UHGV virus genome: UHGV-0060989
Reading direction: 5' to 3' (one strand)
Source of the DNA: a virus
Length of the DNA: 16,644 nt
This document shows, one piece after another, positions 1 through 16,594 of this stretch; position 1 is the first letter of the stretch; each line of letters begins with the position of its first letter. The notes under the pieces are model-generated. The model was not told where the DNA came from. It saw nothing but the letters and a program-made list of their open reading frames with translations, and made no database searches. The position numbers and the translations under genes were made by a program.

Positions 1-181
1 ATTTGAGTTTTGGGTTTAGCGTGACAAGTTTGCGAGGGTGATCGGAGTAATCAGTGAATAGCTCTCCTCCTACAATGACGTCATAACCATGATTTCTGGT
101 TTTCTGCCGTCCGTTATCAGTTCCCTCTGACCACGCCAGCATATCGAGGAACGCCTTACGTTGATTATTGATTTCCACCAT
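1..181 (-). CDS. R: Endolysin R (lambda-type lytic transglycosylase), N-terminal part only; gene continues beyond window start
   Basis: Reverse complement translates as [61 protein letters not shown], matching my recollection of lambda R. The ATG at 181..179 overlaps the S stop, as in lambda. Confidence 0.85.
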
Positions 182-488
182 CTTCTACTCCGGCTTTTTT
201 AGCAGCGAAGCGTTTGATAAGCGAACCAATCGAGTCAGTGCCGATGTAGCCGATGAACACGCTCGTTATATAAGCGAGATTGCTACTTAGTCCGGCGAAG
301 TCGAGAAGGTCACGAATGAACCAGGCGATAATGGCGCACATCGTTGCGTCGATTACTGTTTTTGTAAACGCACCGCCATTATATCTGCCGCGAAGGTACG
401 CCATTGCAAACGCAAGGATTGCCCCGATGCCTTGTTCCTTTGCCGCGAGAATGGCGGCTAACAGGTCATGTTTTTCTGGCATCTTCAT
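165..488 (-). CDS. S: Holin S (class I holin/antiholin with dual Met1-Lys2-Met3 start)
   Basis: 107 aa [42 protein letters not shown]... is essentially the lambda S protein as I recall it, with one C-terminal difference (GGNQ here versus GRNQ). It lies immediately upstream of R. Confidence 0.95.
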
Positions 489-730
489 GTCTTACCCCCA
501 ATAAGGGGATTTGCTCTATTTAATTAGGAATAAGGTCGATTACTGATAGAACAAATCCAGGCTACTGTGTTTAGTAATCAGATTTGTTCGTGACCGATAT
601 GCACGGGCAAAACGGCAGGAGGTTGTTAGCGCAACCTCATGCCGCCCGCTTTCACGAAGATCATGTGTAGAAGGCCGCAGCATAACTATCACTGATGAAT
701 TCAGGATAGCCAGTGGCTACGGCTCAGTTA

Positions 731-806
731 TGGTGCTGGTTAACGGACTTGAACCGCTACCCATTCGCTTACAAGGCGACTGCTCTACCATTGGAGCTAA
801 ACCAGC
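731..806 (-). tRNA. tRNA-like gene, probably tRNA-Thr (anticodon UGU), 76 nt with encoded CCA
   Basis: Minus-strand sequence GCTGGTT-TA-GCTC-CAATGGTA-GAGC-A-GTCGC-CTTGTAA-GCGAA-TGGGT-AGCGG-TTCAAGT-CCGTT-AACCAGC-A-CCA folds by hand into a cloverleaf. It has a perfect 7 bp acceptor stem, GG in the D-loop, a TTCAAGT T-loop and a 7 nt anticodon loop with U33 and anticodon TGT. Confidence 0.6.
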
Positions 807-811
807 ATATT

Positions 812-886
812 TGGCGGGACAGCGTGGACTCGAACCACGATAAGAAGGTTAACAGCCTTCCGTAATGACCTTTATACGACTGACCC
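812..886 (-). tRNA. tRNA-like gene, probably tRNA-Asn (anticodon GUU), 75 nt with encoded CCA; one acceptor-stem mismatch
   Basis: Minus-strand sequence GGGTCAG-TC-GTAT-AAAGGTCA-TTAC-G-GAAGG-CTGTTAA-CCTTC-TTAT-CGTGG-TTCGAGT-CCACG-CTGTCCC-G-CCA. The anticodon stem and T-arm are perfect 5 bp helices and the T-loop GGTTCGAGTCC resembles E. coli tRNA-Asn. The acceptor stem has a T-T mismatch at pair 4-69. Confidence 0.5.
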
Positions 887-932
887 AAATAAAAAAAGCC
901 ACCGTTGCAACTTAAGAGTCACTAACGGCAGC
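887..932 (-). terminator. Candidate tR'-like intrinsic terminator (hairpin plus U7 tract) between Q and the tRNA genes
   Basis: Minus-sense GCUGCCGUU-(17 nt loop)-AACGGUGGC followed by UUUUUUUAUUU forms a 9 bp stem with two G-U pairs. The loop is long, so this is tentative. Confidence 0.35.
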
Positions 933-942
933 TTACCTTCTA

Positions 943-972
943 ATTATGGCTAAATGGCTAATTGCATGTCAA
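943..972 (-). promoter_or_regulatory. Candidate late promoter pR' (-35 TTGACA, 18 bp spacer, -10 CATAAT) overlapping the 3' end of Q
   Basis: Minus-sense TTGACAtgcaattagccatttagcCATAAT. Its position directly downstream of Q and upstream of the hairpin/U-tract fits a short late leader. Based on motif reading only. Confidence 0.35.
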
Positions 973-1468
973 GGCTTTTAACAGCAACATGCTTAACTTT
1001 CTCAACACGTTTACGCATTTTGAAAGCATTTTGCATTGGCTGGTATAAAACAAATAATGACGCTTTCAGGATGTCGTCAATTTCGTTTCTACAGGTTGCC
1101 AGTGAAGGTTTTCTCCATCCCTCGCCACCACGTCCACACATCTTGCGTGGCTTTGCAGTCGCGTGATAGTAGGATGCAATTGCTCGCTTAGATGAACCAT
1201 GAGCGTAGTAGCTGAGGAGGATGCCAAAGGCTTTTTTGTCAATGTACATGACGGAATCGACGACCTGAGAAATCAACATTCCATCATCATCATTGCACAT
1301 TGGCCTTGTCATAACTCTTCCCGGCTCTACGCTCTCCATGAACTTCGCTATTACGCTGCTCATGCGCTTTTCCAGACGACCTGAATAAACCCATGCGCCC
1401 CACAGTTCAAGCCAGCCATTCAGCCACTCGTGCTGCTCTTTGGTGAGGTTTAGTTCTCTTATGCCCAT
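950..1468 (-). CDS. Q: Late-gene antiterminator Q (non-lambda allele, Phage_antitermQ family)
   Basis: 172 aa ORF containing the ELWGAW motif and cysteine/histidine-rich segments. It sits between ninI and the lysis genes, has a GGGAGAAGG ribosome-binding site, and is not the lambda Q sequence. Confidence 0.8.
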
Positions 1469-2130
1469 GCGCCTTCTCCCTGTACCTGAATCAATGTGAG
1501 GTTTCCGCAGAACACTGCGCCGGTATCGATATACATCTGGTTGGCAAATTTGAGTGGTTTCACTGCTGGCGTATGACCAAAGATGAACGTGTCCGCGCCT
1601 TTAATTTCTTTCACGATCCCGTCTTGTGAGTTGCTGATTCGTTCGCGGTTCCAGATTACCTGCTGATGATCAACTGGCTTTCCAAACTCGTATTCGTCAC
1701 AAGGATAATCGGCGTGGCAGATGACATATTTTTTATCTTTGCTCACCAGTTCGATGATTAACGGAAGTTCATCTGCTTTATGGGCAAGAGCTTTAGCCAG
1801 AATTTCTTTGTCGTAATCGAGATTAAAGAACCAGCCACCGCCATTAAGCATCCAGTGATTGACGTTTCCGTGCTCTGATAAGCCATCAATCATCATTTGC
1901 TCATGGTTTCCACGTACAGCTCTGAACCAGGGGAATGTGATTAATTCCAGGCATTCGACGTTCTCTGTACCGCGATCGACCAAATCGCCAACCGAGATAA
2001 GCAGGTCTTTTTTGGTGTCGAATCCTATCGTCTCCAGTTTTTTCATCAGGTTCGTGTAGCATCCGTGCAGATCGCCAACTACCCAAATATTTCGGTATTT
2101 GCTGCCATCAATTTTTTCGTAATAGCGCAT
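1459..2130 (-). CDS. ninI: NinI Ser/Thr protein phosphatase (calcineurin-like phosphoesterase)
   Basis: From the internal Met the product is [25 protein letters not shown]...GDLVDRG...GNHE..., carrying the metallophosphatase motifs and closely matching the lambda phosphatase. The 248 aa six-frame ORF is an upstream extension that overlaps ninH. Confidence 0.9.
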
Positions 2131-2314: not shown

Positions 2315-2913
2315 GCGGCCTCACTTCTGCTATTTCGCAGGTCTTTGAGTTTCTGCTGATACTCCGCCTTGATGGCCCTGCACTCTTCGACAGTCCAGCG
2401 ATGGCGGTTATGGTTTGATTCGATTTCGTCTACTGCTTCCTGCCCGATGCGATTAATCAGTTCGACGCGATACGGAACGAGATTTCCGCTTTTGTGCTGG
2501 TTGCACACCACGCATTGCTTGTGAATATTGCGTTCATCAAATCGGAGTTGAGGTGCCGCAGCAGTTGTCCGGTAATGTCCGGCATCCCACTGAGCAGACG
2601 TGAGCGTTCCGCACGAGATACATGGTAAGTCGCGGTCTCTTTCTCTGATGAAGGCGTTTACGGCTTGTTGGGCTTGTTTAATCCAGTAACTGCGGGGCTT
2701 TAAGGCGAGTTTTCGAATCTTCAGTTTATCTTTCTGTTTCTGCTCCTCTCGTCGTCGTTTCTTCTCTGCTGCTTTTTCCGCTTTTTCGCGTTCTTTACTT
2801 CGTCGTTCGAGTGCTATCTTGGTTCCACAAATCTCATTACACCAATATTGATTTTGATATTTTGGTATAAACCATTCATTGCAACATTTACATTTCCTTC
2901 GATAGATTCGCAT
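2311..2913 (-). CDS. ninG: NinG / Rap (recombination-associated protein), divergent N-terminus with its own start
   Basis: From the Met at 2913 the product is [58 protein letters not shown]..., collinear with lambda NinG after its first ~10 residues. A strong AAGGAG site lies 5 nt upstream of this ATG. The 220 aa track ORF is an upstream extension. Confidence 0.85.
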
Positions 2914-3454
2914 AAGTGCTCCTTTCGTTGCCGGAAAAATCACCGTAATACTTATCTCGGGCTTCTTCAGCAACTAGTACCGCTAACTCCAGATCATCAA
3001 AGCATCCGAAGTGTTTACTCTTGCCATGGAAACCTAGCCTAACATTCCATTTTTTCTGTCGTTTGTGCCAAGTAACTCCTCTGCAACCTGATTTGCTATT
3101 CTTTCGGATCCTTATATTTCTTGAATTTTCTATTGGCAGGCATTCTCTTAAATTTTCTGGCCTATTGTCGGTCCTAATTCCATTAACGTGGTCAATTTGA
3201 CCAGCAGGCCAACGATTATGAGTTATGTAAAAAACTAAGACGTGAGTTTTATATCTACGCCCATCTATCATGATCATTGAATAACCGTTGGAATCAAAAG
3301 TTCCAGCAACACTATTTAATGCTATCCTTCCCTGAGTGGGAACTTTCCATCTAAATACCCCGGTAGATTTATCGAAACTTAGTAACTCAAATATCCTTTT
3401 AACAGTTAAATCTTCTCTTTTACGGTTACATCGTCTTCGCGCTGGTTTAGCCAT
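2888..3454 (-). CDS. HNH homing endonuclease with C-terminal AP2 DNA-binding domain, fused in frame to the first ~10 codons of lambda-type ninG
   Basis: The product starts MAKPARRRC, identical to the lambda NinG N-terminus, then continues ...[23 protein letters not shown]...[23 protein letters not shown] (HNH_3 motif) and ...[49 protein letters not shown] (AP2-like). The body is AT-rich relative to its flanks. Confidence 0.8.
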
Positions 3455-3641
3455 CATCTTCTTCCTCGTGCATCGAGCTATTCGAATCGCTCATCAGCTC
3501 TGCACAGCAGTACTCACACACGTGAACTTCCAGCACATGCAACTTCTGACCGCAGTTAGCGCACGTTAAAGCCCGCTCGACGCTTTCTTGTTCGTAACTT
3601 CGATTTGGGTCAATCACCTTGTTTTCCTCATGCGGTTCCAT
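3447..3641 (-). CDS. ninF: NinF
   Basis: The C-terminal 64 aa of the 153 aa track ORF, from Met90: [64 protein letters not shown]. This resembles lambda NinF, and its stop overlaps the ninG-type start as in lambda. Confidence 0.7.
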   Translation of the reverse strand: MEPHEENKVIDPNRSYEQESVERALTCANCGQKLHVLEVHVCEYCCAELMSDSNSSMHEEEDDG

Positions 3642-6810: not shown

Positions 6811-6949
6811 GACCTTTCTCCTTCCGCATCAGCTTCACTTTTTCCAACTCAGCCCGGAATCGACCAGGCTGCTTGAAGCTGGACAGGAAGCGATCACGTA
6901 GTATGTGTTTGTGAATTTTGTCCTGGTAAGGACTGAGTTGTTTTGTCAT
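6803..6949 (-). CDS. Hypothetical small basic protein (48 aa) between cII and the zinc-finger ORF
   Basis: [48 protein letters not shown] with an AGGAG site 5 nt upstream. Its stop overlaps the zinc-finger ORF start. Not in the ORF track. Confidence 0.4.
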
Positions 6950-6981
6950 AATTACTCCTGTGGATTGATCCAGTAATTCCC

Positions 6982-7278
6982 TCAGAATTGCATATCAGTT
7001 TGCTTAAAATCCTCGGTGGCGGCCGGGGATTTTTTCTTTGTGATTTCATCAAGCGCATACTTAAAAGCCCTGCTAATCGGACTGATGTCTGATGCCATTC
7101 CGAAAGCACACAAGACCGAAGCAATAAATCTCCAGTCCGTTCTGCTTATCTTCGATTCATGACAGCCAATCATCTTTGCCAGACCGCGCTGGGTAAGCGT
7201 TGACAGGTTGATGAGTAAATCAGTTTCAGCGCGATCAATTTCTCGCTGTGTTGGCTTGCTGTAGCTTGCTTGTGCCAT
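6982..7278 (-). CDS. cII: CII-like transcriptional activator (P22 C1 / lambda CII family)
   Basis: 98 aa; the segment ...[19 protein letters not shown]...[20 protein letters not shown] parallels the lambda CII C-terminal region (KKRPAATERSEQIQMEF). It lies immediately downstream of cro. Confidence 0.85.
7256..7269 (+). promoter_or_regulatory. Candidate CII-binding box of pRE (TTGC-N6-TTGC) inside the cII 5' end, oriented toward the repressor gene
   Basis: TTGCtgtagcTTGC on the plus strand, at the position of lambda pRE. Confidence 0.4.
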
Positions 7279-7344
7279 TTGTTAATTTTCCTATATTGAT
7301 ATTGAGTTATAGCGGCACACCCAATGGATTTGCCGCTGATGTTT

Positions 7345-7386
7345 GCTCACCCGGTTAGAGGTGAAAGGCCAGAACTGTTAAAGAGC
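7345..7386 (-). promoter_or_regulatory. nutR (boxA GCTCTTTAACA plus phi21-type boxB hairpin)
   Basis: Minus-sense GCTCTTTAACA, then UCACC-ucuaaccg-GGUGA downstream of cro. Loop content is shared with the nutL boxB at 8495..8514. Confidence 0.55.
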
Positions 7387-7393
7387 AATTTGC

Positions 7394-7579
7394 TTATGCC
7401 GCTTGGCGGTAAGCACTTTCTTGATACTTCAGGGCGCCAGCTGTAACGATTTCCAATCGATAGGCGTCTTTCTCTGGGATAACTTCTTTCCACTGAGAGA
7501 CTGCTGCATCGCTAATGCCTAGTGCTTTAGCAACAGCACGCTGGGTTCCGAAGTGGTCAATAACATCTTTTTTGTACAT
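7394..7579 (-). CDS. cro: Cro repressor (P22-type)
   Basis: 61 aa MYKKDVIDHFGTQRAVAKALGISDAAVSQWKEVIPEKDAYRLEIVTAGALKYQESAYRQAA, nearly identical to P22 Cro as I recall it. Confidence 0.95.
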   Translation of the reverse strand: MYKKDVIDHFGTQRAVAKALGISDAAVSQWKEVIPEKDAYRLEIVTAGALKYQESAYRQAA

Positions 7580-7659
7580 AGACTCGCTCCGAAATTAAAG
7601 AACACTTAAATTATCCACCAAAGGAATCTTAAGTCAAGTTTATTTAAGATGTCTTAACT
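7580..7659. promoter_or_regulatory. Divergent OR/PR/PRM region with P22-type 18 bp operators
   Basis: Operator-like palindromes ATTAAAGAACACTTAAAT (7594..7611) and ATTTAAGATGTCTTAACT (7642..7659), plus a probable third site around 7618..7637. PR on the minus strand reads TTGACT-17 bp-ATAATT. The c2 start has no Shine-Dalgarno site, consistent with a leaderless PRM transcript. Confidence 0.75.
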
Positions 7660-8310
7660 ATGAATACACAACTGATGGGTGAGCGTATTCGCGCTCGCAG
7701 AAAAGAACTCAAGATTAGGCAGGCTGCCCTTGGCAAGATGGTTGGCGTGTCTAATGTTGCTATTTCCCAATGGGAGCGATCTGAAACTGAGCCCAATGGC
7801 GAAAACCTATTGGCCTTAGCCAAGGCTTTGCAGTGCTCCCCTGATTACCTGTTGAAAGGAGAGGATAGTCTTTCAAACATTGCCTATCACAGCAGGCATG
7901 ATCCAAGAGGTTCGTATCCTCTAATTAGTTGGGTAAGCGCAGGATGTTGGATGGAAGCTGTAGAGCCATATCATAGGCGTGCAATAGATAACTGGTACGA
8001 CACAACGGTAGATTGTTCTGAAGACTCTTTTTGGCTCGACGTTAAAGGCGATTCAATGACTGCCCCGGCAGGACTGAGTATTCCTGAGGGGATGATTATT
8101 CTCGTCGACCCAGAAGTCGAACCACGTAATGGAAAGCTGGTAGTCGCCAAACTTGAAGGAGAAAACGAGGCGACATTCAAAAAGTTAGTTATTGATGCCG
8201 GTAGAAAATTCCTGAAACCACTCAATCCACAATACCCAATGATTGAAATCAATGGGAACTGTAAAATCATTGGCGTTGTCGTTGATGCCAAGCTAGCAAA
8301 CCTTCCTTAA
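7660..8310 (+). CDS. c2: C2 repressor (P22-type CI-family repressor with LexA-like autocleavage domain)
   Basis: 216 aa MNTQLMGERIRARRKELKIRQAALGKMVGVSNVAISQWERSETEPNGENLLALAKALQCSPDYLLKG..., closely matching P22 C2. It has an N-terminal HTH and a C-terminal S24 peptidase-like domain. Confidence 0.95.
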   Translation: MNTQLMGERIRARRKELKIRQAALGKMVGVSNVAISQWERSETEPNGENLLALAKALQCSPDYLLKGEDSLSNIAYHSRHDPRGSYPLISWVSAGCWMEAVEPYHRRAIDNWYDTTVDCSEDSFWLDVKGDSMTAPAGLSIPEGMIILVDPEVEPRNGKLVVAKLEGENEATFKKLVIDAGRKFLKPLNPQYPMIEINGNCKIIGVVVDAKLANLP

Positions 8311-8332
8311 GGGGCTTTCGCCCCTTTTTTAT
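8311..8332 (+). terminator. Intrinsic terminator after the repressor gene
   Basis: GGGGC-tttc-GCCCC followed by TTTTTTATTT. Confidence 0.6.
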
Positions 8333-8375
8333 TTCCCGTTAAAAATCAAAGACAAACTAAATTCACGCCCATAGA

Positions 8376-8430
8376 ATTAAGTTTTCTTCAAAAATGCACT
8401 TGACCAATAAATTAAGAAGTCTTAAATTTA
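8376..8430 (+). promoter_or_regulatory. OL/pL: leftward early promoter with operator sites
   Basis: -35 TTGACC (8400..8405), 17 bp spacer, -10 TAAATT (8423..8428). Operator-like ATTAAGAAGTCTTAAATT (8411..8428) overlaps the promoter; a weaker ATTAAGTTTTCTTCAAAA lies at 8376..8393. Confidence 0.6.
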
Positions 8431-8474
8431 AGCCATCAGCAGGACGCTGGAAGCCAAACGGAACAGATTGGCAG

Positions 8475-8514
8475 GCTCTTTAACATCGACGGACTCTCAA
8501 CCTAACCGTTGAGA
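8475..8514 (+). promoter_or_regulatory. nutL (boxA GCTCTTTAACA plus boxB hairpin)
   Basis: GCTCTTTAA at 8475..8483, then hairpin UCUCAAC-cuaacc-GUUGAGA at 8495..8514, upstream of N. Confidence 0.6.
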
Positions 8515-8624
8515 CCAGAACTTGAGTGGTTTTGGGGATGGCGCGAATTGCAGCTGCAAGACAGCGATCGAGAAGATAAGCACCTCGACGCGTCATGCGC
8601 CAAAGCCACTTAAAGGAGACCATC

Positions 8625-8930
8625 ATGGTAACCATTGTCTGGAAAGAATCCAAAGGTACGGCAAAAAGCCGCTACAAAGCTCGCAGAGCAGAACTTATTG
8701 CCGAGCGACGCAGTAATGAAGCACTGGCGCGAAAAATTGCGCTAAAGCTCTCTGGTTGCGTCAGAGCAGACAAAGCAGCATCACTAGGAAGCCTTCGCTG
8801 CAAGAAGGCAGAAGAAGTCGAGCGTAAACAGAACCGTATTTACTACCGGAAGCCACGGAGTGAAATGGGTGTGACTTGCTCAGGCCGCCAGAAGCAACGC
8901 GGAAAATCAATTCCAGCTTATTACGATTGA
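8625..8930 (+). CDS. N: Antiterminator N (phi21-type arginine-rich motif)
   Basis: From the Met preceded by AAGGAG: MVTIVWKESKGTAKSRYKARRAELIAERR... The ARM GTAKSRYKARRAELIAER matches phi21 N as I recall it, and the C-terminus ...GVTCSGRQKQRGKSIP resembles the lambda N C-terminus. Confidence 0.85.
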   Translation: MVTIVWKESKGTAKSRYKARRAELIAERRSNEALARKIALKLSGCVRADKAASLGSLRCKKAEEVERKQNRIYYRKPRSEMGVTCSGRQKQRGKSIPAYYD

Positions 8931-10195: not shown

Positions 10196-10332
10196 CCATT
10201 AATCACCAGATGCTTCGTGCGGCACAAAACAAAGCAGTAATAGCCAGATTTATTGGTGATTCAAAAATGTGGCTTGAAGCAAATAAAGCGATGAAATCAG
10301 CTATCAACCTTCCGTGGTATCGCAGGAAATGA
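10180..10332 (+). CDS. Kil-like small protein (50 aa), tentative
   Basis: MRNEIAINHQMLRAAQNKAVIARFIGDSKMWLEANKAMKSAINLPWYRRK. Position directly after cIII with overlapping start. The resemblance to lambda Kil rests on my uncertain recollection of that sequence. Confidence 0.4.
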   Translation: MRNEIAINHQMLRAAQNKAVIARFIGDSKMWLEANKAMKSAINLPWYRRK

Positions 10333-10413
10333 GTTTTACAGATAACTGGTCAGACGAAGAATTCATTCGTCAGATGAACAAAATGCTCAATCAGCACAAA
10401 GAACAGGAGAAAG

Positions 10414-10725
10414 ATGATGATTCTGACTCTGAATGATAAGCGTGAAATATCGCAAATAATCGCAAGTTTTACTGATGAAGATTACGAGCGAATCAACAGT
10501 GAAGTTGATCGCCTCTGCAAACGTTGCGACCCAATAAGCGAAATGCTTCGCTCATATAAACCAGATGAACACACTAAGGACGCTATCGACTGGTTGGAAG
10601 ATGATGACTGTAACTATCAGGAAAAAGCCGCTGAATGGTTCTGGGATGCAATAACCGAAAGAGTTAAGGCTGAATATGCCTTCGCAATATTCAAACGCAG
10701 ACACATTTATGGAGAAGCAGCATGA
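10414..10725 (+). CDS. Hypothetical acidic protein (103 aa) at the gam/abc position upstream of recT
   Basis: ORF with an AGGAG ribosome-binding site. Its stop overlaps the recT start. No family recognised. Confidence 0.6.
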   Translation: MMILTLNDKREISQIIASFTDEDYERINSEVDRLCKRCDPISEMLRSYKPDEHTKDAIDWLEDDDCNYQEKAAEWFWDAITERVKAEYAFAIFKRRHIYGEAA

Positions 10726-11633
10726 GCAATATCGTTGAATTCGTTAAACAGCAGGAGCAGTTATTCTGCGGAGCATTGACTGAACAGACGGTGACATGGG
10801 CTAAGGAAAGCCAGTTTGCAATTCAGTATTTCCAGAAAAATGATTACCTTGCTAAAACGGCACTGGCAAATCCAACCAGCGCACAGAACGCCATCATCAA
10901 TGTTGCGGCGATCGGCATCACCTTAAACCCGGCCAGCAAACTTGCTTATCTAGTTCCGCGCGACGGCATGGTTTGCCTTGATATCAGTTATATGGGATTG
11001 CTCCATATTGCAATGGAGTCTGGTGTTATCTCATGGGGTCAGGCAAAACTTGTTCATGCTAACGATACCTATGAGTCAAACGGGCTTGATAAAGCACCAA
11101 CCCATAAATACAACGCCTTCGGTGATCGTGGTGATATCGTTGGCGTTTACTGCACAGTTAAGACGCCAGCAGGTGATTATCTAACGGAAGAGATGAGTCT
11201 GGCTGAAATTGAGGCTGTAAGGAAAACAAGCAAGGCAGCATTCAGCGATAAAGGACCATGGGTAAATCACTGGAATGAGATGGCGCGAAAGACGGTCGTA
11301 AAGCGTGCAAGCAAGTATTGGCCTAAGGCATCACGTCTTGATAGTGCTATTCACGTACTAAACGAAGAAGAAGGTGTGTGGACTGAACCAGTTATGCCGC
11401 ACAAATCAGAGGAAGATATCCGCGAAGATGAACGGAAACGCCAGCAGGAAATAATGGATAAAGCACAACTTCTTTGTGATGAAATGGATCAGGCAGAAAA
11501 CATTGATGATTTGAAGCGATATTTTGCAGAAGCATATCGCCTGACATCTGGAATGAAATTGCAGCAGAACGTACAAGCCATTTACATAGAATGCAAAGCG
11601 AAACTGGAGGTTGCCAGTGAGCAAACTGTATGA
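10722..11633 (+). CDS. recT: RecT-family single-strand annealing recombinase
   Basis: 303 aa; the segment GPWVNHWNEMARKTVVKRASKYWPKA matches the conserved RecT core (compare Rac RecT GPWVTHWEEMAKKTAIRRLFKYLP). Confidence 0.85.
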   Translation: MSNIVEFVKQQEQLFCGALTEQTVTWAKESQFAIQYFQKNDYLAKTALANPTSAQNAIINVAAIGITLNPASKLAYLVPRDGMVCLDISYMGLLHIAMESGVISWGQAKLVHANDTYESNGLDKAPTHKYNAFGDRGDIVGVYCTVKTPAGDYLTEEMSLAEIEAVRKTSKAAFSDKGPWVNHWNEMARKTVVKRASKYWPKASRLDSAIHVLNEEEGVWTEPVMPHKSEEDIREDERKRQQEIMDKAQLLCDEMDQAENIDDLKRYFAEAYRLTSGMKLQQNVQAIYIECKAKLEVASEQTV

Positions 11634-12099
11634 AATAGCCAATGAATACGCAAAATTGATGGATTCAGATTTAGAACCAGAGATGATTGCTGACACAATA
11701 GAAGGCATGGAAGGAGAATTTACCGATAAAATAGAGCAACTTCTTTCCGTCATTAAAAATGAATCTGGTTATGCTGAACGCCTCAAGGAAGAGGCAAAGT
11801 CACTGAATGAGCGAGCCGCAGTAATTCAAAATAAGATTGACAGCATCAAATCATATATAGCGTCATCGCTTGAAATGGTTGGCAAGAAAAATATTCGAGC
11901 AGGTATTCACCAGGTAACAATCCGCAAACCGTCAGAAACTGTAGAAATCATCGACTCAAGCGCCCTTCCTCCTGAATACGTTGAGTTTGAAACGACAATT
12001 AAAGCCGACAAACTGGCAATCAAACACCAACTAAAAGCAGGAATAAATATCCCCGGCGCTCAACTCAAAGTTGGGAAACCTTCACTTCTTATCAAATAA
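11617..12099 (+). CDS. Siphovirus Gp157-like protein (recombinase-associated), probable GTG start
   Basis: About 160 aa, helical and acidic at the N-terminus. GGAGG lies 6 nt upstream of the GTG. The family assignment is from memory of Gp157 features and is moderately confident. Confidence 0.55.
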   Translation: MSKLYEIANEYAKLMDSDLEPEMIADTIEGMEGEFTDKIEQLLSVIKNESGYAERLKEEAKSLNERAAVIQNKIDSIKSYIASSLEMVGKKNIRAGIHQVTIRKPSETVEIIDSSALPPEYVEFETTIKADKLAIKHQLKAGINIPGAQLKVGKPSLLIK

Positions 12100-12441: not shown

Positions 12442-12606
12442 ATGAGAGGACTTGCATACAATCCCGGCATTCTTCCGGCAGAAATGATTATTCGCCAACG
12501 CGTAAAGCCAATGCCATCGAGAGAGGAATTGCTTAAGAGAAATTCTTTTCCATCAGTGAATCAAAACAAATATCTGAATGAGATGTGGCGGAGTGGGAAT
12601 AAATGA
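12442..12606 (+). CDS. Hypothetical small protein (54 aa)
   Basis: [54 protein letters not shown] with an AAGAGG site. Its stop overlaps the next ATG. Not in the ORF track. Confidence 0.4.
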
Positions 12607-13148
12607 AACAAATGACACTAATTAAGATGGATGGTTTTCTGAAAGGTAAATGCATCCCACGAGATTTAAAGGTTAACGAAACAAACGCTGAATATCTGGT
12701 GCGTAAATTTGCTGAAGCGGAGGCCAAGATTTCGGCTCTGTCCGAATACCACCAGAAAGCGATTGAGTCAATTAAGCAGGCTGATGCGGCTGTTAAGTTG
12801 GCACACGAGAAGTTTTCGGCGCTGGCGGCGGAGAATGCGGGGCTGAAGTCTGGCGCTATGGACGAAATCAAGGTTATCAACCGTGGAGGGCAGGCATATT
12901 GCGTAAAAGATGGAGTGCAAGTTAATCCCATGTATGCAAGAGGGTGGAATGACTATCGCGCAAAGTCTATGCAATCAGACACCCCAGCCACCGACGCTTT
13001 CCTGGCTGAAATTGAACGCAAAGCAATCCGCAAGTTCATTAACAGCATTGAACACATCCTGCGTGACAAGTTGTCACCGTATGACACCGAAGAGATGCTT
13101 GAGGCTATGCGTATTTTTCTGGAAGAACAGAGTGGTGAGCAAAAATGA
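12603..13148 (+). CDS. Hypothetical coiled-coil protein (181 aa)
   Basis: ORF with a GGAG ribosome-binding site and an Ala/Glu/Lys-rich heptad-like central region. No family recognised. Confidence 0.6.
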
Positions 13149-15330: not shown

Positions 15331-15546
15331 TACTTGACACTTCAGGAGTGGAACGCTCGCCAACGACGCCCAAGAAGCCTTGAAACAGTTCGTCGATGGG
15401 TACGCGAGTGCAGGATATTCCCTCCTCCGGTTAAGGATGGAAGAGAGTATCTGTTCCACGAATCAGCGGTAAAGGTTGACTTAAATCGACCAGTAACAGG
15501 TAGCCTTTTGAAGAGGATCAGAAATGGGAAGAAGGCGAAGTCATGA
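15328..15546 (+). CDS. xis: Excisionase Xis (lambda-type)
   Basis: 72 aa MYLTLQEWNARQRRPRSLETVRRWVRECRIFPPPVKDGREYLFHESAVKVDLNRPVTGSLLKRIRNGKKAKS matches lambda Xis. Its 3' end overlaps the int start. Confidence 0.95.
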   Translation: MYLTLQEWNARQRRPRSLETVRRWVRECRIFPPPVKDGREYLFHESAVKVDLNRPVTGSLLKRIRNGKKAKS

Positions 15547-16594
15547 GCGCCGGGATTTACCCCCTAACCTTTATATAAGAAACAATGGATATTACTGCTA
15601 CAGGGACCCAAGGACGGGTAAAGAGTTTGGATTAGGCCGAGACAGGCGAATCGCAATCACTGAAGCCATACAGGCCAACATTGAGTTATTTTCAGGACAC
15701 AAACACAAGCCTCTGACAGCGAGAATCAACAGTGATAATTCCGTTACGTTACATTCATGGCTTGATCGCTACGAAAAAATCCTGGCCAGCAGAGGAATCA
15801 AGCAGAAGACACTCATAAATTACATGAGCAAAATTAAAGCAATAAGGAGGGGTCTGCCTGATGCTCCACTTGAAGACATCACCACAAAAGAAATTGCGGC
15901 AATGCTCAATGGATACATAGACGAGGGCAAGGCGGCGTCAGCCAAGTTAATCAGATCAACACTGAGCGATGCATTCCGAGAGGCAATAGCTGAAGGCCAT
16001 ATAACAACAAACCCTGTCGCTGCCACTCGCGCAGCAAAATCAGAGGTAAGGAGATCAAGACTTACGGCTGACGAATACCTGAAAATTTATCAAGCAGCAG
16101 AATCATCACCATGTTGGCTCAGACTTGCAATGGAACTGGCTGTTGTTACCGGGCAACGAGTTGGTGATTTATGCGAAATGAAGTGGTCTGATATCGTAGA
16201 TGGATATCTTTATGTCGAGCAAAGCAAAACAGGCGTAAAAATTGCCATCCCAACAGCATTGCATGTTGATGCTCTCGGAATATCAATGAAGGAAACACTT
16301 GATAAATGCAAAGAGATTCTTGGCGGAGAAACCATAATTGCATCTACTCGTCGCGAACCGCTTTCATCCGGCACAGTATCAAGGTATTTTATGCGCGCAC
16401 GAAAAGCATCAGGTCTTTCCTTCGAAGGGGATCCGCCTACCTTTCACGAGTTGCGCAGTTTGTCTGCAAGACTCTATGAGAAGCAGATAAGCGATAAGTT
16501 TGCTCAACATCTTCTCGGGCATAAGTCGGACACCATGGCATCACAGTATCGTGATGACAGAGGCAGGGAGTGGGACAAAATTGAAATCAAATAA
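15524..16594 (+). CDS. int: Integrase Int (lambda-type tyrosine recombinase)
   Basis: 356 aa MGRRRSHERRDLPPNLYIRNNGYYCYRDPRTGKEFGLGRDRRIAITEAIQANIELFSGHKHKPL... matches lambda Int, including the catalytic C-terminal domain (HELRSLSARLY...LLGHKSDTMASQY). Confidence 0.97.
   Translation: MGRRRSHERRDLPPNLYIRNNGYYCYRDPRTGKEFGLGRDRRIAITEAIQANIELFSGHKHKPLTARINSDNSVTLHSWLDRYEKILASRGIKQKTLINYMSKIKAIRRGLPDAPLEDITTKEIAAMLNGYIDEGKAASAKLIRSTLSDAFREAIAEGHITTNPVAATRAAKSEVRRSRLTADEYLKIYQAAESSPCWLRLAMELAVVTGQRVGDLCEMKWSDIVDGYLYVEQSKTGVKIAIPTALHVDALGISMKETLDKCKEILGGETIIASTRREPLSSGTVSRYFMRARKASGLSFEGDPPTFHELRSLSARLYEKQISDKFAQHLLGHKSDTMASQYRDDRGREWDKIEIK

Follow-up and report, generated by a model that had tools for sequence, protein, structure and literature searches.

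The virus genome UHGV-0060989, of which a stretch of 16,644 nucleotides (nt) was analysed and is called the window throughout, carries two adjacent transfer RNA (tRNA) genes, one for tRNA-Asn(GUU) and one for tRNA-Thr(UGU), between the gene for its late antiterminator, Q, and the lysis gene S. These are almost certainly functional members of the cassette known from phage 21, whose two tRNAs they match exactly. Taking the evidence as a whole, we consider it likely that the pair forms a functional phage-21-type tRNA cassette opening the late operon, in which tRNA-Thr replaces a host tRNA, ThrU, that defensive nucleases attack. As a discovery the cassette itself carries little weight, having been described years ago for phage 21, Sf6, SfI and L, and its significance lies elsewhere. 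The window possesses the exact tRNA-Thr shown to act against the nuclease Old of phage P2 in two studies of 2025–2026; its tRNA-Asn, with a conserved mismatch in the acceptor stem, is a clean candidate for a part in the same arms race; and the late, Q-dependent position of both genes poses a question of timing for any counter-defence based on tRNAs.

The tRNA genes

tRNA genes were called across the window with ARAGORN and with the Rfam model RF00005 (Infernal, gathering score 29). ARAGORN returned exactly two, both on the minus strand, and no other Rfam family reached threshold anywhere in the window. On the transcribed strand tRNA-Asn comes first (812..886, 75 nt, 55.3 bits with the Rfam model) and tRNA-Thr second (731..806, 76 nt, 61.5 bits), separated by a 5-nt spacer (807..811, minus strand) that reads AAUAU here and AACAU in phage 21 and Sf6. 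The 3' ends are encoded in full, as …GUCCC-G-CCA in tRNA-Asn and …CCAGC-A-CCA in tRNA-Thr. The original prediction, made from the letters alone, had proposed precisely such a pair, with Thr-UGU and Asn-GUU anticodons, encoded CCA ends and a separation of 5 nt on the strand of the lysis genes; ARAGORN, run as it had suggested, and Rfam agree on the anticodons, and the remaining details can be read directly from the sequence.

The Rfam tRNA model aligns both genes end to end, their minimum-energy folds are cloverleaves, and each displays the features of an elongator tRNA: a 7-bp acceptor stem, a D-arm with G18G19, a 7-nt anticodon loop with U33 and a purine at position 37, and a T-loop of the form UUCRA. 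Asparaginyl-tRNA synthetase (AsnRS) recognizes the anticodon G34 U35 U36 together with the discriminator G73, and threonyl-tRNA synthetase (ThrRS) recognizes G1-C72, C2-G71, G35 and U36. All elements of the first set are found in the window tRNA-Asn and all of the second in its tRNA-Thr, from which we judge that the two would be accepted by AsnRS and ThrRS respectively; for a phage tRNA-Thr, the need for the anticodon has been confirmed functionally by Govande et al. 2025 (PMC12445682). tRNA-Asn, with the anticodon loop CUGUUAA, has three oddities, namely a U4·U69 mismatch in the acceptor stem, which Infernal also flags, a U13·U22 opposition in the D-stem, and C9. In tRNA-Thr, a G27·A43 mismatch stands next to a U28-A42 pair in the anticodon arm. 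Comparison with the corresponding host tRNAs, which the original prediction had recommended, gave only 62–71% identity.

Structural selection

Both genes are under purifying selection for structure. A pattern scan of IMG/VR seeded on tRNA-Asn gave at least 120 loci among the matches listed, and covariation was assessed in 17 distinct variants of tRNA-Asn and 19 of tRNA-Thr, with 500 shuffles and slid registers as controls. In tRNA-Asn, 89.9% of cells are paired against 85.1% in the shuffles, none of which matches the observed value. Double changes occur at six pairs and in 16 cells, compared to 3.3 and 4.6 after shuffling, and double substitutions preserve the cloverleaf at 5:68, 6:67, 7:66, 28:42 and 29:41; the covariation score of 0.141 (0.052 in shuffled data) is reached by none of the 500 shuffles. 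tRNA-Thr shows compensatory changes at four pairs and in 12 cells; as with tRNA-Asn, its score lies above all 500 shuffles and above every slid register, and when the register is slid, pairing in the two tRNAs falls to 25–53%.

Other positions do not vary. The anticodon loop, G18G19 and the T-loop of tRNA-Asn are unchanged across its variants, G73 is present in 16 of the 17, and position 13:22 is U·U in every one. Covariation in the acceptor stem of tRNA-Thr falls on 3:70, 5:68 and 6:67, while G1-C72, C2-G71, G35 and U36 never vary and the anticodon arm is nearly frozen, G27·A43 and U28-A42 being found in all 19 variants despite covariation in the acceptor stem. Position 4:69 of tRNA-Asn is unpaired in 15 of 17 variants, spanning three acceptor-stem haplotypes, and because neighbouring pairs change in compensatory fashion around it, the mismatch belongs to the conserved features of a tRNA under selection and is no mark of decay. 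The original prediction had noted this T-T mismatch correctly and had offered either a decaying or a specialised copy as its meaning; decay no longer fits, but the copy may be specialised, and U4·U69 might contribute to some special means of evasion or of charging.

The late leader

Q lies on the minus strand at 950..1468, an open reading frame (ORF) of 172 amino acids (aa) of the phage 21/Sf6 type that ends in a TAG stop codon (952..950). It has approximately 99% DNA identity with Sf6 gene 59 and 86% identity with the Q of phage 21, from which it diverges in the C-terminal half. A candidate promoter overlapping this stop codon and a hairpin with a U7 tract had both been predicted from the sequence, and both are substantiated here. 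The pR'-like late promoter (943..972, minus strand) comprises the -35 element TTGACA (972..967), an 18-nt gap and the -10 element CATAAT (948..943), fits the consensus at 11 of 12 positions, and aligns column for column with the annotated -35, Q-binding element (QBE) and -10 of phage 21 pR'. A promoter scan of positions 400..1500 gave three promoter-like sites where 1.3 were expected, and found no further such site between pR' and S on the minus strand. Between the -35 and -10 elements (963..948, minus strand) lies a QBE-like direct repeat, AATTAGCC ATTTAGCC, which is of the Sf6/L type and not the phage 21 type, ATTGAGCA / AATGAGCA. Since this difference is matched by the divergence in the C-terminal part of Q, the regulatory unit can be assigned to the Sf6 subtype (PMC8022706 for the Sf6/L type), although the tRNA part is identical to that of phage 21.

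By positional homology to phage 21 (start 39541, pause element 39542-39548), late transcription is predicted to start at G936 and to meet a sigma-dependent pause element, TAAGCTG, at 935..929 (the whole being 929..936, minus strand); from the pause element through the terminator the window and phage 21 are identical. The intrinsic terminator tR' (887..934, minus strand) consists of a hairpin (934..896) that folds at -20.2 kcal/mol (z = -4.4) and a U-tract (897..887) with U7 at 897..891 followed by A and UUU. Owing to an internal bulge in its stem and a loop of 4 nt, tR' escaped a simple terminator scan, and folding was used instead. In a four-way alignment of the leaders of the window, phage 21, Sf6 and ST64T, tR' is the same as the late terminator of phage 21, and the length of the U-run differs in Sf6 and ST64T. 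tRNA-Asn begins at the base directly after the U-tract.

On the model of phage 21, RNA polymerase would start the late transcript at pR', at about G936, and without Q would stop in the U-tract, 1–10 nt before tRNA-Asn and some 45–50 nt from the start, while Q-modified polymerase would read through tR'. Lying behind a terminator that is passed in this manner, the tRNAs would be the first products of the late transcript, and with their CCA ends encoded they should need no more than RNase P and the 3' exonucleases of the host to free them from a transcript running into S. Between the tRNAs and S, blastn and alignment define a leader of about 240 nt (489..730, minus strand), of which the first 60 nt or so (730..669) are common to phage 21, lambda, Sf6 and HK446 and the remainder is lambda-like. 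S itself (165..488, minus strand), the first protein gene of the late operon, is an ORF for a lambda-type holin/antiholin of 107 aa with 97.6% DNA identity to lambda S; its equivalents in Sf6, genes 60/61, are annotated as counterparts of S107/S105. The list of ORFs shows no cargo between the tRNAs and S.

A probable role in counter-defence

P2 Old is the effector of classical P2-lambda interference. Its target is host tRNA-ThrU, the sole decoder of ACA in Escherichia coli: Old kills by cutting out the anticodon arm of this tRNA, which it cleaves at paired CNG motifs at 28-30 and 40-42, and a phage tRNA-Thr(UGU) rescues cells from Old (PMC12445682, Govande et al. 2025). According to the same article, the tRNA-Thr of phage 21, tRNA-Thr21, protects against P2 Old toxicity, its Site 1 is nearly fully resistant, and it is distinguished by a shorter anticodon stem and by C28U/G42A. 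The tRNA-Thr of HK446 restored plaquing of the Old-sensitive phages HK97, HK542 and Bas34 (bioRxiv 10.64898/2026.07.10.737580). The window tRNA-Thr is identical to both. With UCG at 28-30, CGA at 40-42 and G27·A43, in place of the CUG, the CAG and the complete 5-bp stem of host thrU, it has the published sequence features of an Old-resistant 'rescue tRNA', that is, a UGU anticodon, altered CNG motifs and a stem shortened at 27:43, and its resistance is explained by an anticodon stem that lacks paired CNG and is shortened by G27·A43. Host thrU does not protect cells from Old even when overexpressed, and the phage tRNA-Thr does (PMC12445682; bioRxiv 10.64898/2026.07.10.737580), showing that the differences in sequence are functionally important. 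On balance, our analysis favours the countering of Toprim tRNases as a real, selected role of tRNA-Thr, which would replace host ThrU, the main target of Old and a prime target of the PARIS nuclease AriB.

For tRNA-Asn the case is more tentative. AriB cuts at U36AAUC|N41, and a change of U39 abolishes cleavage of tRNA-Lys; host tRNA-Asn(GUU) ranks as a secondary AriB target of biological relevance, and the motif alone does not decide cleavage (PMC12409363, Belukhina et al. 2025). U39 is replaced in both window tRNAs, giving UAAGCG in tRNA-Thr and UAACCU in tRNA-Asn, a change that concerns the motif and is not by itself decisive for cleavage. Host asnT has a paired CNG (CGG/CCG) and the AriB motif UAAUC, while the window tRNA-Asn has AAG/CUU and UAACC. 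As host tRNA-Asn is also a slower substrate of P2 Old, the phage tRNA-Asn would probably follow the logic of tRNA-Thr for this second host tRNA. That it constitutes the second half of a two-tRNA lambdoid counter-defence module, directed against the Toprim tRNases of P2-like prophages and P4-like satellites, is nonetheless a proposal that we hold to be doubtful.

Several points weigh against a counter-defence role for the cassette. All rescue experiments employed plasmid promoters and not the native position in the late leader. Old and PARIS act early, the known triggers of Old including the early RecBCD inhibitor Gam and hairpins of single-stranded DNA at the replication origin, whereas the tRNAs are made late. 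tRNA-Thr alone rescued neither lambda nor the toxicity seen in ΔrecB, and HK446 also requires a protein inhibitor, Oad2, and the authors of that work doubt that the tRNA is primarily anti-Old (bioRxiv 10.64898/2026.07.10.737580). The tandem pair of phage P1 retains CNG in its tRNA-Thr, and with identity to host tRNAs as low as that given above, differences in the anticodon stem are to be expected from divergence alone. The cassette is without tRNA-Lys(UUU), the prime target of AriB. Where tRNA-Asn is concerned, the Mulock type (six of the 17 variants) has regained CAG/CUG through a change of A28-U42 to C28-G42, so that the argument from CNG cannot be generalised; the phage shows no enrichment of Asn codons; and tRNA-Asn is absent from the listed top targets of Old in vivo (bioRxiv 10.64898/2026.07.10.737580).

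Alternative explanations

The strongest competitor is pure codon supplementation, by which the tRNAs would only boost codons commoner in the phage (ACA; AAC/AAU) during late synthesis and have no anti-nuclease role. Codon usage, which the original prediction had suggested comparing, was examined in phage 21 genes and window ORFs against 38 E. coli genes, and the outcome is divided between the two tRNAs. ACA is raised, at 12.6–15.0 per 1000 codons in the phage sets against 5.8 in the host (2.2–2.6 times), as it is in SfI (17.3 vs 7.1; PMC3636060); the capsid gene of phage L employs AAC for 24 of 25 Asn codons (PMC8022706); and placement in the late operon suits a need that arises during synthesis of virion proteins. 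However, Asn codons are not enriched (AAC 20–23 per 1000 against 22 in the host), SfI being likewise without Asn bias (PMC3636060), and ACA makes up only 4.5% of Thr codons in the major capsid gene of phage 21. Nor would supplementation account for the failure of overexpressed host thrU against Old where the phage tRNA works, or for a resistance-type anticodon arm that is unchanged across the tRNA-Thr variants. As a complete explanation codon supplementation is therefore unlikely, but it and the replacement of ThrU are not mutually exclusive: it is plausible for Thr and weak for Asn, and service to the raised ACA usage of the phage would be a compatible second benefit of tRNA-Thr.

The tRNAs could instead act mainly in cis, RNase P cleavage detaching the structured, paused leader and setting the 5' end and stability of the lysis and late mRNA. 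Only position speaks for this, tRNA-Asn standing right after the terminator and tRNA-Thr ending about 240 nt before S, while lambda manages with an unrelated 163-nt segment in the same slot, and conserved anticodons and identity elements are not required of a pure processing signal; we regard a predominantly cis role as very improbable.

Still less credible is the idea, proposed for HK446 as a 'temperate lifestyle' reading (bioRxiv 10.64898/2026.07.10.737580), that the cassette makes up for the damage which prophage integration does to a host tRNA gene. tRNA-dependent lysogeny does exist in mycobacteriophages (PMC10865867), but the cassette, placed behind tR' in the late operon some 15 kb away from int (15524..16594), would be expected to stay mostly silent in a lysogen; phages with unrelated integrases carry it too, and E. 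coli has four asn genes. We rejected the idea on account of the cassette's position and of the attachment site of phage 21, which with an identical pair integrates in icd and not in a tRNA gene. Finally, the view of tRNA-Asn as a pseudo-tRNA in decay that travels with tRNA-Thr, to which its three oddities and an Rfam score below that of tRNA-Thr might lead, was likewise rejected, since the six compensatory pair changes, the pairing that no shuffle equals, the invariant loops, and its place at the head of every array type in the seeded sample of at least 120 contigs make it scarcely tenable.

Mosaic structure and distribution

The original prediction had taken the 3' end of tRNA-Thr, where lambda-like sequence begins, for a mosaic junction, and the alignments are in agreement. 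Homology to lambda (97.6% over 580 nt) starts at window position 729, 2 nt past the CCA of tRNA-Thr; on the other flank, homology to HK446 starts at 896, inside the U-tract of the terminator. With limits on both sides, the tRNA pair behaves as a self-contained mosaic module. Homology to phage 21 runs about 60 nt beyond tRNA-Thr, to 669, after which S21 takes over. In lambda the corresponding slot (44782-44944) holds a 163-nt segment against a 164-nt cassette; the short sequences TTTTTTAT and AACTGAGCC flank both. We rejected this lambda segment as a decayed tRNA remnant, because its global and local alignments to the cassette are no better than those of dinucleotide shuffles (138/500 and 294/500 reach the respective scores); ARAGORN finds no tRNA in it. 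The pair reassorts with several lysis cassettes and with Q/pR' regions of at least three types.

From the end of Q to S, 511 nt of the window are 98.4–98.8% identical to HF4s, vB_EcoP-720R6, CurroJimenez and Sf6, and 97–98% identical to many Salmonella P22-like phages. Among 5,426 complete E. coli genomes the tRNA-Asn/tRNA-Thr cassette is present in 353 (6.5%), labelled by PGAP as tRNA-Thr and tRNA-Asn, and annotations of this module also exist for Sf6, BTP1 and SPN9CC. As the pair also figures in published descriptions of SfI (PMC3636060), Sf6, ST64T, PS3, phage 21 and L (PMC8022706), the cassette is an already known and routinely annotated module. The window as a whole is a different matter: sought in collections of phage and E. 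coli sequences, it was covered to 55% and 63% at best, and is a unique mosaic.

Not every array is an Asn-Thr pair. Among the IMG/VR matches listed there are at least 95 Asn-Thr loci, at least seven of Asn-Gly(UCC) and at least five of Asn-Phe-Thr-Arg(UCU), the rest being minor forms, and tRNA-Asn heads every array type among at least 120 viral contigs, though the search was seeded on tRNA-Asn. Variable arrays that lie behind tR' and begin with the same tRNA-Asn include Asn-Phe(GAA)-Thr-Arg(UCU) with or without Gly(UCC), Asn-Gly(UCC) and Asn-Thr-Arg (IMG/VR loci, Mulock, Tbat2_3); Gly(UCC) is named among the preferred targets of Old (bioRxiv 10.64898/2026.07.10.737580). In ST64T and L, the second 'tRNA' keeps the acceptor, D and T arms of the cassette tRNA-Thr and has its anticodon arm replaced (ST64T segment 987-1055). 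The ST64T form scores 42.1 bits with Infernal, has a 5-bp stem closing a loop of about 4 nt, and receives no ARAGORN call; with such an arm, the published assignment of 'Leu(UAA)' in phage L looks doubtful, and these may be anticodon-less tRNA-like RNAs. One IMG/VR contig (L117, 218-293 of the extracted segment) carries a tRNA-Thr whose 5' third is of the phage type and which from the anticodon arm onward equals host thrU, its acceptor stem still pairing with the help of G·U wobbles; either recombination between phage and host produced it or it is a chimera of the assembly.

Other features of the window

An ORF of 181 aa at 12603-13148 (plus strand; phrog_614) has 40.6% identity over about 165 aa (E = 6e-36) to HK446 gp27, or Oad2, a protein described in 2026 as an inhibitor of P2 Old (bioRxiv 10.64898/2026.07.10.737580). 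Just upstream, the ORF at 12442-12606 (plus strand) is 93% identical to HK446_028. With tRNA-Thr and a distant homologue of Oad2 in the same window, this phage may carry two anti-Old devices, as HK446 does. Following ORFs that resemble cIII and kil, a small ORF at 10314-10436 (plus strand) is 76% identical over its first 21 residues to HK446 gp33, the reported trigger of Old, and has a different C-terminus.

The immunity region (6942-8893) is imm21, 98% identical to phage 21 from the end of cII through cro and cI into N, and the genes for replication (O-like, DnaB-like helicase) and recombination are of other types. Where lambda has Exo/Bet/Gam, the pL operon of the window (10722-12099, plus strand) has genes for a RecT-like annealase and for an end-protection protein resembling Mu Gam. 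In the nin region, an HNH endonuclease ORF of 189 aa (2888-3457, minus strand; phrog_99, E = 1e-71) overlaps the start of a NinG-like ORF and may be a homing-endonuclease insertion.

Comparison with known systems

The late leader of phage 21 was reportedly the subject of a study by Guo, Kainz and Roberts in 1991. It is arranged as pR'-QBE-pause element-tR'-tRNA-Asn-tRNA-Thr (OL657228 39506-39746; PMC9119081), in the same order and with the same distances as the window, and its tRNA pair (39591-39746) stands behind an experimentally mapped pR', QBE, pause element and terminator. Both tRNAs are 100% identical to those of the window, as are the pause element and terminator. The differences concern the QBE, ATTGAGCA/AATGAGCA against AATTAGCC/ATTTAGCC, the -10, which is CATAAT in the window, and one base of the spacer; downstream, the window has a lambda-type S and phage 21 the S21 pinholin.

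Sf6 (AF547987; Casjens et al. 2004) is 99.0% identical to window positions 1500..150 in the region of its genes 59-61, and resembles the window in Q type, QBE, tRNAs (tRNA-Asn being 100% identical) and lambda-type S. Its annotation lists the late promoter, qut, tR', tRNA-Asn and tRNA-Thr as 'similar to phage 21'; its U-run lacks one base and its spacer differs at one position. The same module characterizes an Sf6-type group that includes BTP1, SPN9CC, Kapi1 and CurroJimenez, but elsewhere the window, which has imm21, RecT and a Mu-Gam-like gene, is another mosaic than Sf6. In HK446 the cassette is identical to that of the window, spacer included, and is located after the late terminator and before a lambda-type S, whereas upstream HK446 has a lambda-type Q, the lambda pR' and a 194-nt 6S leader, unlike the window. 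This region of HK446 is unannotated; ARAGORN calls both tRNA-Asn (1511-1585 of the segment) and tRNA-Thr there, identical to those of the window. HK446 has been said to encode a single tRNA, the adjacent tRNA-Asn being overlooked (bioRxiv 10.64898/2026.07.10.737580), and neither of the experimental papers that used the cassette tRNA-Thr noticed its neighbour (the same preprint, and PMC12445682).

Phage T5 has two of three specificities in common with the cassette, and U39 of UAAUC and the CNG motifs are lost in both sets, but identity to the window tRNAs is only 61–64%, and T5 is virulent, with its tRNAs in a cluster of about 25 tRNA genes in which each group has its own promoters. In Stx phages of the 933W type this slot is taken by the ileZ-argN-argO cluster, which lies downstream of Q/pR'/tR' and precedes the lysis genes. 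The original prediction had cited this as its precedent, rightly as to the slot; the closest relatives, however, are phage 21, Sf6, HK446 and BTP1, which have the exact pair. The Stx genes are unrelated, sit next to toxin cargo and have the specificities Ile(CAU) and Arg(UCU/UCG), so that anticodons GUU and UGU place the window pair outside that cluster, and the sequence common to the window and Stx phages is limited to about 30 nt at the end of the terminator.

Phage P1 possesses a tandem tRNA-Asn(GUU)-tRNA-Thr(UGU) with the same anticodons in the same order, 2 nt apart (825-978 of the P1 segment), which follows the promoters of the ban operon and is not in a late leader. Its tRNA-Thr is 81% identical to that of the window, unlike which it retains CUG/CAG and a full 5-bp stem, and its tRNA-Asn, only 58% identical, is without the 4:69 mismatch. 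The P1 tandem is an independent one, and the same two specificities thus recur in an unrelated temperate phage.

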